DNA from: Nautiliaceae bacterium
Lineage (GTDB): Bacteria; Campylobacterota; Campylobacteria; Campylobacterales; Nautiliaceae
NCBI GenBank assembly: GCA_039831155.1
Contig: JBDONT010000029.1
Span: 529-64,528, forward strand
Reading direction: 5' to 3'
DNA: 64,000 nucleotides
This document shows positions 32,660-39,714 of the stretch, one piece after another (the stretch's first letter is position 1; every line of letters begins with the position of its first letter). Under the pieces are notes generated by a model that was not told where the DNA came from, ran no database searches, and saw only the letters and a program-made list of their open reading frames with translations. The translations under genes were made by a program, and so were the position numbers.

Positions 32660-34780
32660 TTAAAATTTCAAAAATTTATTAATTTCCTCTTTTAAATTAT
32701 CTTTTAATCTCTTTTTCAATTCATTTTCGGATAACTTCTTAAGCTCTTTTTTCAAAGAATTCATATCTAAATTTAAAAAGTCGGTATTCTCAAATTTCAA
32801 AGAACCTATTTGAGACGTTAACAGTTTTTTAGCTTTTTTCTTCTCTTTTTCTATCTCTTCATTTACACCTCTTTTAACTACAGAAGATAACACCCTATCA
32901 AGATTTGAATGAATTCTTAATTTTAAATTTTCCATTTTACCCAACACTTCTATGTCAAATTCCAGTTTTTTAACATTTTTCAAAAGATTAGTAACTTTTT
33001 TTGAATTTAAAAACTCTATAATTGAATTGTCACTAAAAGCTTTAATATTCAGTTTTAAAAATTTATCTTTTAAAATACCTTGAAATCTCACATCAAAATC
33101 AGCACTTAAAATTTTTAAAGGACCTATAAAATAATCTTTAACTTTTAATCTATCTACTTTTCCAAAAAGTTTAAACTCATTTAAATATTCAATTTTTATG
33201 AATGCAAAATCAAAATATCCGCTTTTTGAATCAACTTTTAAAATCGCACTTTTACTTAAAAGTTTTTGATTAGAGGATATATTATAACCGTTCACGACAA
33301 AACTTGCGTTTTTTAATATTACATTAGAGTAGAAATGTTCCAATACACAATCCGGATAAACGTTTTTATCCTTAAACTTAATATAAACTCCCTTAAATCT
33401 GCTTTTTTCTTCCTTAGAAGATGATTTTAAATAAGGTTTTACTCTCTCATACCAATATAAAGCTTTATTAATATATTCGCTTATTTGAGGTTTCAAAAAA
33501 CTCTCCACAAAAGATAAATACTCTTTATTTTTCAGCATATCATATCTTTTTTCTATATTCAAATAATCCTCATTAACAGCTTCTTTAAAGGCTTTTAAAT
33601 CTTTCTTTACTTTTTCTTTTGCTTTTAAAACTTCTTTTTTATCGCTTTTAATTAAAGAATCTATTTTAGAAATTTCATTATCAAGATTTTTTACTTTTTG
33701 AATTATGTCACTAATGTTATTGGCATTAGGTTTTGTGTTTTTTAAAGAGTCTATTTGAAGCTTTATAGAATTTAACTTTTCTTTAGCGATTTTTGCGTCT
33801 TGCTTTGATTTATTAACTATTTTTAAGAAACTTTCATAATCTTTTTTCAAAACTTCCAACTCTTTTTTACTTTTTAATTCATAATTAGCCAATACCTTAG
33901 AAACATCCGGAATTTTTATATTTAATTTAAAATCAGCAGTTTTTGAAGGTTTTGAAGAGACGTTTTTAACCTTTACAATCTCTTCTATATTTTTATTTGA
34001 ATAAACTTTAGAAATAACAAGTTTTTCAATATCACATTTCTTCCACATCAACTCTTTAAAAGAAAACTTTATTAAAATAGTATCAATCTTAACATCTCCT
34101 ACATAAACCCCTTTTAAATCAACTTTTAAATTTCCAAAAGAAACATCAACTTTTTTTACTTTGACCGGTTTACGGGTAATTTTAGATACTGAAACTTCAA
34201 AAGCCTTTTTTATAATAAAAGGAGTGGTAACATAAATAAATCCACTAATTAAACCTACAACCCCTACAAAAGCAATCAAACCACTTAATCTAAAAACACC
34301 TTTTTTCTCCTCCTTAGGTACAAGCCACTTTAAAAGTTTGTATTTACTAAAAAAAGGAAACAGCTTTTTTCTATAAACTTCTATCGAACGGTTTAATAAA
34401 ATATAAACCCCAACACCTAAAACGACTCCCCAAACAAACGAACCCAAAACAACCGTATTATTAAAATCACTCCACCTAAAATAAGGAATATTATAAAGCC
34501 ACTCCCATAAAGGCTCCAAAAATTTAAAATGCAAAAGTTCCCACCCCGTGTAAGCAAAAACAGGATCCAAAACAAAAGCTATAATCTCAAAAAAACTCCA
34601 AGAAGCAAAATAAAGTCCCAAAGGTATTCTAAATACAAACACAAAAAACAAAATCAAAAAAGTTATTAAATTAATCCCCGGCAAAAACCCACTTACAAGC
34701 CCAAGCACAATCGCCAAAGAGATAAATTTCTGTGAATCCGCACTGTTTAGTTCTCTTAAAAACTTAATCAAAAATTCCAT
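32660..34780 (-). CDS. Apparent TIGR03546 + TIGR03545 family fusion membrane protein
   Basis: N-terminal LRELNS...ISLAIVLGLVSGFLP / FNNTVVLGS membrane module, then TM, central coiled coil and beta-rich AsmA-like C-terminus. Confidence 0.6.
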   Translation of the reverse strand: MEFLIKFLRELNSADSQKFISLAIVLGLVSGFLPGINLITFLILFFVFVFRIPLGLYFASWSFFEIIAFVLDPVFAYTGWELLHFKFLEPLWEWLYNIPYFRWSDFNNTVVLGSFVWGVVLGVGVYILLNRSIEVYRKKLFPFFSKYKLLKWLVPKEEKKGVFRLSGLIAFVGVVGLISGFIYVTTPFIIKKAFEVSVSKITRKPVKVKKVDVSFGNLKVDLKGVYVGDVKIDTILIKFSFKELMWKKCDIEKLVISKVYSNKNIEEIVKVKNVSSKPSKTADFKLNIKIPDVSKVLANYELKSKKELEVLKKDYESFLKIVNKSKQDAKIAKEKLNSIKLQIDSLKNTKPNANNISDIIQKVKNLDNEISKIDSLIKSDKKEVLKAKEKVKKDLKAFKEAVNEDYLNIEKRYDMLKNKEYLSFVESFLKPQISEYINKALYWYERVKPYLKSSSKEEKSRFKGVYIKFKDKNVYPDCVLEHFYSNVILKNASFVVNGYNISSNQKLLSKSAILKVDSKSGYFDFAFIKIEYLNEFKLFGKVDRLKVKDYFIGPLKILSADFDVRFQGILKDKFLKLNIKAFSDNSIIEFLNSKKVTNLLKNVKKLEFDIEVLGKMENLKLRIHSNLDRVLSSVVKRGVNEEIEKEKKKAKKLLTSQIGSLKFENTDFLNLDMNSLKKELKKLSENELKKRLKDNLKEEINKFLKF

Positions 34781-34782
34781 CT

Positions 34783-35073
34783 TTATCCTTTTATTTTTTC
34801 TATAAATTTTGCAATCTCTTCAAAATCTTTATCAATTCTATAATACGGCTTATATTTTTCAAAATTCCTCCAGGGAATATAAGCACTGTTTCTGCCTCTT
34901 TTTTCAAGTTCCATTGCAACTGCGGCATTTATAAGACCTTTATAAGCAAATTGAATTTTATCGTCTCCTTTTCTTAAACCTTGCCAAACTTCTTCTAATA
35001 CTTCGTGGGCTTCATAAAATTCACCTTTTAAAATAAGTTTTTTAAACTCCTCTAACTCTTTTCTCAAAACCAC
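34783..35073 (-). CDS. DUF309 protein
   Basis: FYEAHEVLEEVW...KGLINAAVA family motif. Confidence 0.8.
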   Translation of the reverse strand: MVLRKELEEFKKLILKGEFYEAHEVLEEVWQGLRKGDDKIQFAYKGLINAAVAMELEKRGRNSAYIPWRNFEKYKPYYRIDKDFEEIAKFIEKIKG

Positions 35074-35105: not shown

Positions 35106-35825
35106 ATGTTAAACATCGTAACGGCTTTAAGTATAGAGGCAAAACCTATAATAAAACATTTCAATCTAAAAGCCAAAAACGAAATATATCAAAATAATTA
35201 TTTAAATTTAACAATAACCGGCAGTGGTAAACTAAAATCGGCAATAAACACCACTATTTTACTTACGAAATATCAATTCCCGACTCTTAATATAGGAATT
35301 GCAGGAAGTAACGAACATCAGATAAACCAAGGTTTTTTTATTCACAAAATCATAGACACCGACTCCAACCTAAAATACTATCCCGATTTTTTCCAAGACA
35401 ACAGCGAAACTTTACATACCGTATCCCAAATAAAAACATACTACCCTCTTGTAGATATGGAAGGAAGTGGCTTTTTTGAAGCTTGTTACAAATTTTTAAG
35501 TGTAGAGGAAATTATTCTTTATAAAATAGTAAGCGATACTCCATTAAGAGAGCCTAAAAAAGATTTAATCCCTTCTCTTATCAAAAACCATATCCACGTT
35601 ATAGAAAACCTCCTAGACTCACTTCCTAAAAAAGAAGAGTTTTTCAAAGAGATAAACGAAGCCTTAAAAGAAGCCTCTTTAAAAATGCATTTAACCAAAA
35701 CCCAATACAATCAACTAAAAAACATCTTAACTTATTACAAGCTAATAAACAAACCTTTTCCAAAATTTTATAAAATAAGAAAAAAAGAAGATGTTAAGAA
35801 GTTTATTACCAGTTTAACTTCTTAA
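35106..35825 (+). CDS. Nucleoside phosphorylase/MTA-nucleosidase fold protein
   Basis: ALSIEAKP, ITGSGK, NIGIAG, VDMEGSGF, KIVSD. Confidence 0.7.
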   Translation: MLNIVTALSIEAKPIIKHFNLKAKNEIYQNNYLNLTITGSGKLKSAINTTILLTKYQFPTLNIGIAGSNEHQINQGFFIHKIIDTDSNLKYYPDFFQDNSETLHTVSQIKTYYPLVDMEGSGFFEACYKFLSVEEIILYKIVSDTPLREPKKDLIPSLIKNHIHVIENLLDSLPKKEEFFKEINEALKEASLKMHLTKTQYNQLKNILTYYKLINKPFPKFYKIRKKEDVKKFITSLTS

Positions 35826-38655
35826 CTTGAGATTTTGTAACGTTTTCTTCATTCGGAGTAATATTTACATCAACCGTGCGATTAGTTTCATTAAACTTTT
35901 CATTCGATATCGATTTAACCCCGCTCCATCCTTTCGAACTCATTAAAAAATCAACTTTAACACAAGGATGAGTAAAACAACTTTCATCTTCACTAGGGTC
36001 TTTATATATTGTAGCTAAAGGATGATACCACAACCAAGAATTAATTCCCAAATGGATTTTTACACTATAAGGAAGAATATGTATAGTTTTAAAAGTCACA
36101 TTCTCTTCACCGTTTACAACCGAATTTAATTCCACCGTAACATCATTCGGTTTAACAACCGAAGTTATATTTCCATCATTATTATTATGGTCTTTATTTA
36201 AAACCCACTCATCATTATTCCAGTAAAAATAAGTAAATTTACCATTTAATTCATTTCCATAACCTGCTACATTTGTAGCTTTTATACGTCCGTATCTGTA
36301 AGTTGCTTTGGAATAAGTCGGATTGATTACGCTTATATCCGCACTTCCGAATGTAGAATTTTCATCGCTCACATTTACATCTCTTAGCGTTACGTTAAAT
36401 TCATTTACCGGATAAGAATATTTTTTAGTAAATCCTATTAAAAGATGAATTATAGCACTTCCGTTCGTATCGATTGAGAAGAAATTTTTATTAACATCTC
36501 TCAATTCCAATACTTGATTTAAAGAAACATTATTTTCTTCTCCCGTTTGGTTTATTTCATAACTAACTTTTTGGTCAATCGGAAAATTATTAACATCCAA
36601 ATATTTATAAGAAACATTCAAATCGAAATTTTTAGCATAACATAACGCATTATAATTTTTAGCTATCGAATTTTTCGTATAAGCTGTAATATTTAATTCG
36701 GCAAAAGCGGACATCTTTAAAGTATTAGAAATATAAGTAAACTTACCTTTGTTAAAATTATAAAAACCTCCGTTAATTACGAATTTATAAGGAACGAAAA
36801 GTTTAAACGTTCCGTATCCCGGTGAAATAAGCAAAATATCGTCACTTATTCCGCTATCATTTTCATCAACACTAGCAAATTCGTGAGTATCTTTAATTTC
36901 TCTTACGCTAGCGTTAATTTCTCCGACTTCATTATAAGCTACGCTAACGTGAGCCACTCCGTTTACAAAATTAGCATTATAAAACTCATTTGCAAATTTA
37001 CCTCCGAGACAAGATGCTTTTAAATCTTTAGCACTCAACCCTATATCATCGTTAAAATTAGCATTCGAAATCAAATTACCGTTATAATCTAAAGCTTCTA
37101 ACGTAATATTAAACTCATCTCCGGCTTTTATAACCGAATCTATATTTGATAATTTATATTTAGCCGGTCTTATGGAAAAATCGTCTCTACTACAAACTTT
37201 ATTGGAATAATTATCAAATACACACTGTAAACATTCGTCACTAGGGACATCTCCGCCTCCGTAAGTTCTGTTTCTTTTATAGTTACAAACTTGTGCACAC
37301 GGTACGTCACAATAATCCGAATCTATATTTCCCGTCGGACAAGCATCTCCGTATCTAGCCGTTGCTATTTGAGTTAATAATCCCCACACGCAATTATTAG
37401 TTCTATCGACACACGCATTATCATTATCCGCTATCATATTACCTTGAGCGTCAGTCAAATATCTAACCCTAAATCTAGCATCTTTCAACACTCCGGAATA
37501 AATTATATTATTTATTTCCTTTACGCTTTCTTGATTAAAAAACAAAAAATACCTATTAAGAGTCGGATTCGTATCGCATTCATATTGATTGGAAGGATTT
37601 TTAATCAAATCAACCTCCACAACTCCCGAATAATTTTCTAAGGTTTGATAATCTTTATTTAACTTTAAAACCTTTACCGAAAAAGGTTTATTCGCTATTT
37701 TTGTAAAGATTTGATTTAAAGAGTTTTCCGGGTCTATAGGATCGGTATCGGAATCAAAACTACTTTCAACTACATTGAAAGTTCCTGTTACCAAAGAGAC
37801 TTGAGAATGTTCCGTACAATTAAACATATCTCCTATCGAACCGTCATATATAAAAATTCCGTTATTTCCGTTTATATTTCGTTCGGCAGTTAAAGCTCCG
37901 TACAAAATTATAGGTAAATTCGCTCTAAATTCACCTTTTACATAAAGATACGCTCTTACTACCGATACTCTATCCACTTCTATACTTCCTCCACTATAGA
38001 TAAACAAATTATGAGAATCTCCGTTTCTATTTATATCTCCCATTATTTTAAAATCATTTTTCACAAAAATTCTAACATCTCCCCCTTCCGGCAATATAAT
38101 TTTAGTATCGCTGTTAATTATTAAAGAATTAAAATAATAATCCCCCGGATAAAATTCAAGAGTAAAAGTTCTGTTTTGTAAAGTAATATCACCAAACGTC
38201 ATACATTTTTGATTTGTATCGTAAGGACAAGTTTCATTAGCATCAAAAATTAAAGTCGAAGGAGTCATATTGTTAAAATTATTAGTATTGGAAGTATAAT
38301 CGGTATGTGTAAAATTACACTCATTAGGATATTTACAATCGTTATCAACACTATAAGTTAAAGCCGAAGTCAATAATACCGGTGTAAATGTAGGAGCGTT
38401 TAAAGATTTTATATCACAAGTCACATTCGATAAACACTCTTTATCCGTATAACATTTCACACTTTGCAACGTATTTGTTTTATCCGAATAAATCGAACTA
38501 CTACCACAGATTTTAGAATTTGAAAATTGAACCGTAGAATACCCGTACACCGAACTTGGAAACACATCACATATATTAGCGAATCTATCTCCTATAGTAG
38601 CGGTATCCGCCCTTAACAAAGTAAAAAATATAAAAAAGAAAAACAATCCTCTCAT
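35806..38655 (-). CDS. Secreted MshQ-like (DUF6701-type) Cys-rich protein
   Basis: Signal peptide, beta-solenoid-like N-terminal region, DDFSIRPA, C-terminal YRYGRIKATNVAG...FTYFYW typical of MshQ-like proteins. Confidence 0.6.
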   Translation of the reverse strand: MRGLFFFFIFFTLLRADTATIGDRFANICDVFPSSVYGYSTVQFSNSKICGSSSIYSDKTNTLQSVKCYTDKECLSNVTCDIKSLNAPTFTPVLLTSALTYSVDNDCKYPNECNFTHTDYTSNTNNFNNMTPSTLIFDANETCPYDTNQKCMTFGDITLQNRTFTLEFYPGDYYFNSLIINSDTKIILPEGGDVRIFVKNDFKIMGDINRNGDSHNLFIYSGGSIEVDRVSVVRAYLYVKGEFRANLPIILYGALTAERNINGNNGIFIYDGSIGDMFNCTEHSQVSLVTGTFNVVESSFDSDTDPIDPENSLNQIFTKIANKPFSVKVLKLNKDYQTLENYSGVVEVDLIKNPSNQYECDTNPTLNRYFLFFNQESVKEINNIIYSGVLKDARFRVRYLTDAQGNMIADNDNACVDRTNNCVWGLLTQIATARYGDACPTGNIDSDYCDVPCAQVCNYKRNRTYGGGDVPSDECLQCVFDNYSNKVCSRDDFSIRPAKYKLSNIDSVIKAGDEFNITLEALDYNGNLISNANFNDDIGLSAKDLKASCLGGKFANEFYNANFVNGVAHVSVAYNEVGEINASVREIKDTHEFASVDENDSGISDDILLISPGYGTFKLFVPYKFVINGGFYNFNKGKFTYISNTLKMSAFAELNITAYTKNSIAKNYNALCYAKNFDLNVSYKYLDVNNFPIDQKVSYEINQTGEENNVSLNQVLELRDVNKNFFSIDTNGSAIIHLLIGFTKKYSYPVNEFNVTLRDVNVSDENSTFGSADISVINPTYSKATYRYGRIKATNVAGYGNELNGKFTYFYWNNDEWVLNKDHNNNDGNITSVVKPNDVTVELNSVVNGEENVTFKTIHILPYSVKIHLGINSWLWYHPLATIYKDPSEDESCFTHPCVKVDFLMSSKGWSGVKSISNEKFNETNRTVDVNITPNEENVTKSQVKKLNW

Positions 38656-38734
38656 TTTAAAACCTTTTTGTTTTAATCCTATTTTAATTATACAACTTTT
38701 TTATAAAATTTACAAATTTAATACCAAAGTCAAA

Positions 38735-38758
38735 AAAGTGAAAAACAACTTTCACTTT
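38735..38758. promoter_or_regulatory. Perfect 9-bp inverted repeat, candidate operator
   Basis: AAAGTGAAA-N6-TTTCACTTT, 7 nt upstream of the extended -10-like TGATACACT of the SPL-like gene. Confidence 0.5.
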
Positions 38759-38790
38759 ATTTTGATACACTTTCAAAAAAAGGTTAAGAG

Positions 38791-39714
38791 TTGATTTGTT
38801 ATATAGAAAAAGAAATTTTAAATGAAGCTTTAATACAAAAAATTATAAACAAATTCAATCCCAAAATAATAGAAATAGACCATTATAAAGATATCTTTAA
38901 CCGTTCTCATCAAAATTTTAACTATCAAAAACAAAAAAACGTACTCATCCTGGCAAAAAAAGAAAAAAACTTTTTATATAAAGGAAGCAGCTTTTGTAAT
39001 AATAGAGGCTATCAAAATTTTTTTTATTCAACTCAAATTTTAGGATGTATTTATAACTGTCATTACTGTTATTTAGCCGGAATGTACCCGTGTGGATATC
39101 CGGTGATTTTTGTAAATGAAGATGATTTTATAAAAGAGAGCGAAAAACTCTCAAACACTTATATAGCAATTAGCTACGAAACCGACCTTTTAGCATTTGA
39201 GGGAATTTATCCTTTCCATAAAAAATGGATAGAACTTGCCAAAAAAAGAAAAGATTTATTTATAGAAAGTAGAACGAAATCGGCAAATACCCACAAGCTA
39301 CCAAACAATCCTCCTAAAAATTTTCTACTTAGCTTCTCATTATCACCTATAGAAATAAATAAATTTGAAGAAAAAGCCCCTACTCTTGAAAAAAGAATAA
39401 AAGCAATAAAAATCGCTCAAGAAAAAAATTACAATATAGAAATAGCAATAGACCCTATTTTAAAAGTAGAAAATCATGAAGAAATATACAAAAACTTTAT
39501 AGCTTATCTCAAAAAGCAATTGGACTTAAAATATATAAACCTGGAAATAGGAGCTTTTAGAATGAATAAAGGATTTTTAAAAAATTTAAGAAAAACTCAT
39601 TTAAGTCCTATAAGCTGGTATCCATATGAAATAAAAAATAACGAAGCAAGATATGAAGATGAAAAAAAGATAATTGAAAATATAAAAAAAATAATAAAGG
39701 AAGAAGGAAATTAG
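38791..39714 (+). CDS. Spore photoproduct lyase family radical SAM protein
   Basis: GCIYNCHYCYL (B. subtilis SplB GCMGHCHYCYL), FVNEDDF, SRTK, FSLSP..NKFEEKAPTLEKRI, IDPI. Confidence 0.85.
   Translation: MICYIEKEILNEALIQKIINKFNPKIIEIDHYKDIFNRSHQNFNYQKQKNVLILAKKEKNFLYKGSSFCNNRGYQNFFYSTQILGCIYNCHYCYLAGMYPCGYPVIFVNEDDFIKESEKLSNTYIAISYETDLLAFEGIYPFHKKWIELAKKRKDLFIESRTKSANTHKLPNNPPKNFLLSFSLSPIEINKFEEKAPTLEKRIKAIKIAQEKNYNIEIAIDPILKVENHEEIYKNFIAYLKKQLDLKYINLEIGAFRMNKGFLKNLRKTHLSPISWYPYEIKNNEARYEDEKKIIENIKKIIKEEGN

Follow-up and report, generated by a model that had tools for sequence, protein, structure and literature searches.

In a 64,000-nucleotide stretch of a Nautiliaceae genome (the window), two plus-strand genes that form a unit in many bacteria are separated by an antisense gene. 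The upstream gene, at 35106-35825, encodes a 239-aa nucleosidase (NUC) that combines a core with the 5'-methylthioadenosine/S-adenosylhomocysteine nucleosidase (MTAN) fold (~residues 1-150) with a four-helix C-terminal tail (~residues 152-238). The downstream gene, at 38791-39714, has a TTG start preceded by AAGG and encodes a 307-aa radical S-adenosylmethionine (SAM) enzyme with the fold of spore photoproduct lyase (SPL). The gene between them, on the minus strand at 35806-38655, encodes a 949-aa Cys-rich secreted MshQ-like protein with a weak match to DUF7305; it is an insertion that splits the cassette and not a member of it, and its end overlaps that of the NUC gene by 20 bp, tail to tail. 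The G+C content of the region is ~30%, and the best protein matches of the window are in Nautilia, Caminibacter and Lebetimonas. Genome stretches of relatives that were compared with the window carry locus labels (L001 etc.); the nearest, L006, comes from an uncultured Nautiliales metagenome-assembled genome (MAG) and shows ~95% protein identity.

The radical SAM protein passed the Pfam SPL family PF20903 (43.7 bits against a cut-off of 27; 42.3 bits in the genome search), and a profile of 56 of its relatives aligned with Geobacillus SPL over the full length (E=1.5e-28). Its AlphaFold2 (AF2) model (pLDDT 95.9) gave the SPL structures 4fhe and 4fhc as best Foldseek matches and sole strong structural neighbors, at TM 0.85 and 18-19% identity. 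SplB itself (EC 4.1.99.14; G. thermodenitrificans structures 4FHC-4FHG and 4RH0) is covered by the equivalog TIGR04070, which the window protein failed with 52.2 bits against a cut-off of 400; relatives at 40-45% identity scored 58-95 bits. It also failed TIGR03886, the SPL-family protein of non-sporulating bacteria, with 32 bits over a partial stretch against a cut-off of 437.55. In three spore-forming Firmicutes (C. tyrobutyricum, Thermosediminibacter and Fervidicola), a true SplB scoring 522-543 bits on TIGR04070 is present beside the cassette paralogue.

Beyond the whole-length fold, the cassette enzyme shares with SplB the CxxxCxxC motif for the [4Fe-4S] cluster and SAM, including the Tyr between the second and third Cys (C86-I-Y-N-C90-H-Y92-C93, 39046-39069), and counterparts of D143, of the T172-K174-type SAM-binding segments, of the E/R of the HFE..GRL region and of R273 are conserved. 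C86, C90 and C93 do not vary among 72 relatives with the same type of cassette (type 1), and Y92 is found in 70 of them. The two enzymes differ at the H-donor position of SPL. In both HMMER alignments, Tyr129 (codon at 39175-39177) of the segment ISYETD (residues 127-132, 39169-39186) falls on the H-donor Cys140 of Geobacillus SPL (Cys141 in B. subtilis). Tyr129 and Asp132 are both present in 72/72 relatives, where the cluster cysteines are the only ones conserved; Cys69, three residues after the Ser66 that is equivalent to Ser76, the site of the Clostridium-type alternative Cys (cf. 4rh0), is a Cys in 32/72. The relay residue Tyr98 (Tyr99 in B. subtilis) is Tyr94 in the window protein, and the type-1 family has Tyr in 39, Phe in 32 and Trp in one. 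Together with the Ser or Ala found there in a second type of cassette (type 2), this split suggests that the position is under no selection as a relay.

The beta-hairpin with which SPL fills the DNA gap is shortened in the cassette enzyme as well: its tip residues Arg304-Tyr305 are part of a 7-residue stretch of SPL that is absent from the cassette family profile, and the shortened tip, K-N-N-E in the window, is variable in the family (position 287 is Ser or Thr in 54/72). R257, which aligns with Arg273 of Geobacillus SPL, belongs to a large set of conserved residues with charged or polar side chains (E6, Q41, Q46, K47, K57, E159, R161, K163, E193, R202, D221 and R257). Because the protein scores 52 rather than 400 bits, the Cys-Tyr relay (with the H-donor Cys missing) and the hairpin Arg304/Tyr305 are not conserved, and true SplB coexists with it in spore-formers, we rejected its identification as SplB. 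It is an SPL-fold paralogue and not a spore photoproduct lyase. Unlike SplB, it is obligately paired with a nucleosidase, usually also with a reductase, and it occurs in non-sporulating phyla.

The AF2 model of NUC (pLDDT 95.0) has the MTAN fold: the top Foldseek matches were all MTANs, and CT263, the trimmed MTAN of Chlamydia, was covered best among the matches listed (TMt 0.70-0.75). NUC has the MTAN catalytic set (Glu12, Met173-Glu174 and Ser196-Asp197 in MtnN/Pfs), with its residues aligned to the PEE, VEME and RAMSD segments of solved MTANs. Across 52 NUC relatives, E11, M118-E119, K140 and D144 do not vary and S143 hardly does. With the catalytic residues intact, NUC is predicted to be an adenine-nucleoside hydrolase. 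It does not have the full-size MTAN core with the 5'-alkylthio pocket loops, as ~50 residues are missing between the NIGIAG and DMEG motifs, and it failed the MtnN/Pfs family NF004079 (EC 3.2.2.9) with 20.3 bits against a cut-off of 169. The best NCBIfam match, to the futalosine hydrolase MqnB (TIGR03664), covered the N-terminal 70 residues only and also failed (25.3 against 124.7 bits). As the same genome holds a canonical MTAN elsewhere (C41:73301-73981, 292.6 bits), NUC is an additional, specialized enzyme distinct from the housekeeping MTAN. The helical tail (35559-35822; model helices at residues 152-160, 163-172, 176-194, 198-213 and 227-238) carries conserved L-T-x-T-Q...L-K-x-L-L and K-x-E-x-K segments and has no significant match to a Pfam or NCBIfam family. 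Three type-1-like loci from Alphaproteobacteria (L073, L079 and L081) have a NUC of only ~195 aa without this tail.

A scan with the NUC alignment, limited to one genome per species, yielded 80 loci from Nautiliaceae, Leptospira, Clostridium, Fusobacterium, Thermosediminibacter, Dictyoglomota, Gamma- and Alphaproteobacteria, Opitutales, Lentisphaeria, Myxococcota and others. In 65 of these loci, a hidden Markov model (HMM) search placed an SPL-like gene immediately 3' of NUC in the same orientation; in three it is ~3 kb away. In one locus from a gammaproteobacterial MAG the two are fused, as a single 658-aa open reading frame (ORF) with nucleosidase and SPL-fold radical SAM domains (L067:865-2838). 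No SPL-like gene was found in the remaining 11 of the 80 loci, several of which are incomplete. The same arrangement was seen in independent contig look-ups. Across an even sample of 301 Campylobacteria genomes, both genes occur in 51, NUC alone in two, the radical SAM gene alone in six and neither in 242 (Fisher's test, 2.6e-48, uncorrected for phylogeny). Where both are present, they are adjacent in 21 genomes, within 15 kb of each other in nine and unlinked in 21. Retention of both genes without linkage suggests that the members of the pair depend on each other functionally. With the adjacency in 65 of 80 genomes and the fusion, it shows that NUC and the SPL-fold radical SAM protein are a true functional module.

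An earlier note on this DNA had described the layout of two co-oriented genes parted by an antisense MshQ-like gene, with an MTA-nucleosidase fold encoded upstream and an SPL-like enzyme that lacks the H-donor Cys downstream. All of this agrees with the ORFs, alignments and models reported here. Its statement that the protein follows SplB motif by motif overstates a likeness of less than 20% sequence identity. The proposed two-gene module is real as a pair, and the families are linked across genomes; the unit, on the other hand, is usually larger.

Its further members are a reductase and a glycosyltransferase. A specific short-chain dehydrogenase/reductase (SDR; 31-56% identity between phyla) lies directly 3' of the radical SAM gene in ~29 loci, and a specific soluble family 2 glycosyltransferase (GT2) directly 5' of NUC in 18. 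The usual unit thus has three or four genes, in the order (GT2)-nucleosidase-radical SAM-SDR. Curated families offer only generic names for the SDR and GT2 and none that is specific; the closest solved relative of the SDR is clavaldehyde dehydrogenase, an aldehyde reductase. No published characterization of the cassette was found in the literature searched.

Little else recurs around the cassette. We saw no recurring transporter or salvage genes next to it, and an Rfam scan of nine cassette loci returned only an unrelated cobalamin riboswitch and tRNAs. polA is found downstream in eight Thermosediminibacter-type loci, a linkage confined to one family. The wider neighbors of two GT2-type loci (acyl-CoA dehydrogenase, CopCD, beta-lactamase, GH20 and HemN-like genes) do not recur and were dropped from consideration. 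In L001-L004 a SUFU-domain gene (L001-L004:6813-7469; PF05076, 108.8 bits) lies between NUC and the radical SAM gene and overlaps the NUC stop codon; it was set aside as a lineage-specific insert of these loci and not taken as part of the cassette.

Other Campylobacteria have the type-2 form of the cassette, in which a short nucleosidase (~175-195 aa, no tail) is paired with an SPL-fold protein of 390-470 aa that has an N-terminal helical extension; a related SDR is encoded nearby. The type-2 radical SAM proteins have Gln at the Cys140 position in 22/22 cases and Ser or Ala at the Tyr98 position. When the tail of type-1 NUC was compared with the N-terminal extension of the type-2 radical SAM protein by hhalign, the probability was 42% (P=2.7e-4). 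This is only suggestive of one helical domain that could sit on either side of the gene boundary and mediate contact between the two proteins. In one Campylobacteria genome (L086:3388-9159) the type-2 pair comes directly after trmD-rplS, and genes for a Znu-type ABC transporter and DedA lie between the pair and its SDR.

Two known gene pairs combine a radical SAM enzyme with a protein of the purine nucleoside phosphorylase (PNP)/MTAN fold, HpnH/HpnG and MqnE/MqnB, and in both an adenosylation is followed by removal of adenine. The feature common to them, genomic coupling of a radical SAM gene to an adenine-releasing enzyme of this fold, is found in the cassette too. We tentatively favor an analogous reading, which we would still call short of probable, in which (GT2)-NUC-radical SAM-SDR is a widespread cassette for radical adenosylation, adenine removal and sugar reduction. 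Since the SPL hydrogen-return relay (Cys140 to Tyr98 to 5'-deoxyadenosine, 5'-dA) is not conserved, SAM would be consumed as a co-substrate. The adenine nucleoside would be a pathway intermediate and not mere waste, because the pairing with NUC persists despite a housekeeping MTAN.

In the first step of this scheme, the 5'-deoxyadenosyl radical would add to an unsaturated carbon of an acceptor, probably a polar one, and the adduct radical would be quenched; in type 1 the invariant Tyr129 is a plausible quencher. NUC, docked via its helical tail, would then remove adenine and leave a C5 ribosyl appendage. In a third step the SDR would reduce the sugar aldehyde to a polyol, which GT2 might glycosylate in some lineages.

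One counterpart of this scheme is HpnH/HpnG(/HpnI), which builds the side chain of bacteriohopanepolyols: there, too, a radical SAM enzyme is followed by adenine removal by a PNP/MTAN-fold enzyme, the ribosyl group is reduced to a polyol, and some lineages have a GT2. The cassette enzyme, in contrast, is of the SPL type and not of the HpnH type, there is no squalene-hopene cyclase context, and the cassette occurs in organisms not known as hopanoid makers (Fusobacterium, Clostridium, Leptospira and Nautilia); adenosylation is proposed here by analogy. MqnE/MqnB of the futalosine pathway (or MTAN or CT263 in the place of MqnB) likewise couples radical adenosylation to a trimmed MTAN-fold hydrolase. 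It differs in that NUC scores 25 against 125 bits for MqnB and the radical SAM protein is not MqnE-like (Foldseek E ~0.015, TM 0.38), and in this genome the canonical MTAN is available for that role.

Several points weigh against adenosylation. No acceptor can be named, and the proposed chemistry is carried over from the two analogous systems, whereas for the SPL fold itself only H abstraction with C-C scission has been characterized, and not radical addition. Type 2 has Gln instead of Tyr at the proposed quenching position, and the conserved charged and polar residues would suit a metabolite or a nucleotide substrate alike. Gene order does not fix the order of the reactions, so that NUC could act before the radical SAM step, and many loci have neither SDR nor GT2 next to the pair. 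A more far-reaching form of the favored reading is that the SPL fold has given rise, independently of MqnE, HpnH and ArsS, to one more family of radical SAM enzymes that transfer the entire 5'-deoxyadenosyl group to carbon, and that with the tailed NUC and the SDR it installs, on a common cellular molecule, a ribose-derived C5 polyol that is glycosylated in some lineages. We regard this as possible but doubtful; if true, a polyol-installing pathway would span bacteria from vent Nautiliaceae to Clostridium, Fusobacterium and Leptospira.

A close rival to adenosylation is that the radical SAM protein retains H-abstraction chemistry, as a lyase, isomerase or dehydratase, and acts on a small adenine nucleoside or a sugar derived from one, in a salvage or degradation route where NUC makes or finishes the substrate and the SDR reduces a carbonyl. 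NUC might, for example, free a 5-substituted ribose from 5'-methylthioadenosine (MTA), S-adenosylhomocysteine or 5'-dA, which the radical SAM enzyme would cleave or rearrange. We consider this, too, a tentative possibility that we would not expect to hold. The SPL fold is a lyase fold, and as the natural substrate of SPL is a dinucleoside, a polar pocket of nucleoside size is plausible; the conserved residues have polar or charged side chains. That the enzyme is obligately paired with NUC although the genome has a canonical MTAN would fit a nucleoside intermediate equally well in this case, and an SDR would suit the reduction of a keto or aldehyde product. There is also a precedent in queuosine salvage, where the nucleoside hydrolase QueK acts before the radical SAM queuine lyase QueL (10.1101/2023.12.05.570228, PMC12632869). 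The cassette resembles QueK/QueL in that a nucleoside hydrolase is paired with a radical SAM lyase for a substrate the size of a base or nucleoside. QueK, however, belongs to the inosine-uridine nucleoside hydrolase (IUNH) family whereas NUC has the MTAN fold, and the QueT transporter context is absent from the cassette. The lack of recurring transporter or salvage genes, and of a related riboswitch in the nine loci scanned, also tells against a salvage route, which in addition leaves the GT2 partner unexplained.

The database names of these proteins are "spore photoproduct lyase" or "DNA photolyase"; the genome paper of N. profundicola counted the orthologue as a possible vent-specific DNA-repair gene (PMC2628731). 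The earlier note had suggested that the pair acts on a different DNA or nucleotide lesion or substrate, with the partner removing 5'-dA or the released base. We consider it improbable that the SPL-like enzyme serves to modify a nucleobase, or to repair damage in DNA or RNA of a kind other than spore photoproduct, with NUC only clearing 5'-dA or the released base. The full-length SPL fold, the alignment of R257 with Geobacillus Arg273 and the polA genes downstream in the Thermosediminibacter-type loci would fit such a role, as would the inhibition of radical SAM enzymes by 5'-dA. But the polA linkage is limited to one family, the Cys/Tyr relay appears to be lost, Arg304-Tyr305 belong to an insertion that the family lacks and the hairpin tip residues vary. 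No repair genes are among the conserved partners, which are a reductase and a glycosyltransferase, and in spore-formers the cassette coexists with true SplB. Simple clean-up of 5'-dA is likewise weakened as a role for NUC, since the canonical MTAN already handles 5'-dA. The evidence says that the repair or SPL label is wrong for the cassette proteins. The cassette is kept in many bacterial phyla, even where its genes are scattered, and solving its chemistry would give a function to hundreds of mis-annotated genes and uncover further capabilities of the SPL fold. A new SAM-derived metabolite or modification might also come to light in gut anaerobes, spirochaetes and chemolithoautotrophs.

Within Nautiliaceae, the cassette can be followed from an intact to a dispersed state. 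L011 and L012 have the simple order of a minus-strand DUF309 gene followed by NUC-radical SAM-SDR, and in these two loci and L119 the MshQ-like gene is absent and NUC and the radical SAM gene abut. In Nautilia, Caminibacter and Lebetimonas (L006, L014 and L114-L118; e.g. L116:1564-9964), one to three tandem antisense MshQ-like copies occupy the same site. Because these copies share the site at only 30-41% identity, they point to an old insertion that was later duplicated. In the window and in L006 the SDR is also no longer 3' of the radical SAM gene, and a porin gene is found there instead; the SDR orthologue is on another contig (C32:27868-28503, 211 aa, 80% identity to the SDR of L011). The cassette has been pulled apart here by insertion and rearrangement, and all three core genes have been kept. 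It is highly improbable that the pair in this genome is a decaying remnant with one or more non-functional genes: the MshQ-like insertion and the displaced SDR disrupt the operon and promoter-like sites in the region are no commoner than in shuffled sequence, which is uninformative, but the NUC, radical SAM and SDR ORFs are intact with every family-invariant residue present, both models have pLDDT of at least 95, the split is old and common to Nautilia, Caminibacter and Lebetimonas, where identities of 54-95% for NUC and 68-95% for the radical SAM protein indicate purifying selection, and 21 other Campylobacteria genomes keep the genes unlinked.

At C32:27868-28976, the SDR gene overlaps the stop codon of an upstream gene on the same strand that encodes a 158-aa Crp/Fnr-like regulator. 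In the window, the DUF309 gene (34783-35073, minus strand; PF03745, 48.2 bits) is divergent from NUC, with a 32-bp gap between the start codons. It is at the same place in L006, L012, L014 and L114-L118, and the divergent layout is seen in all Nautiliaceae loci examined; outside Nautiliaceae, no DUF309 gene was found next to the cassette. At 32660-34780 on the minus strand, a 706-aa protein joins an N-terminal membrane domain of the TIGR03546 family (DUF2062-like) to a body of the TIGR03545 family, two families that are normally described as separate proteins.

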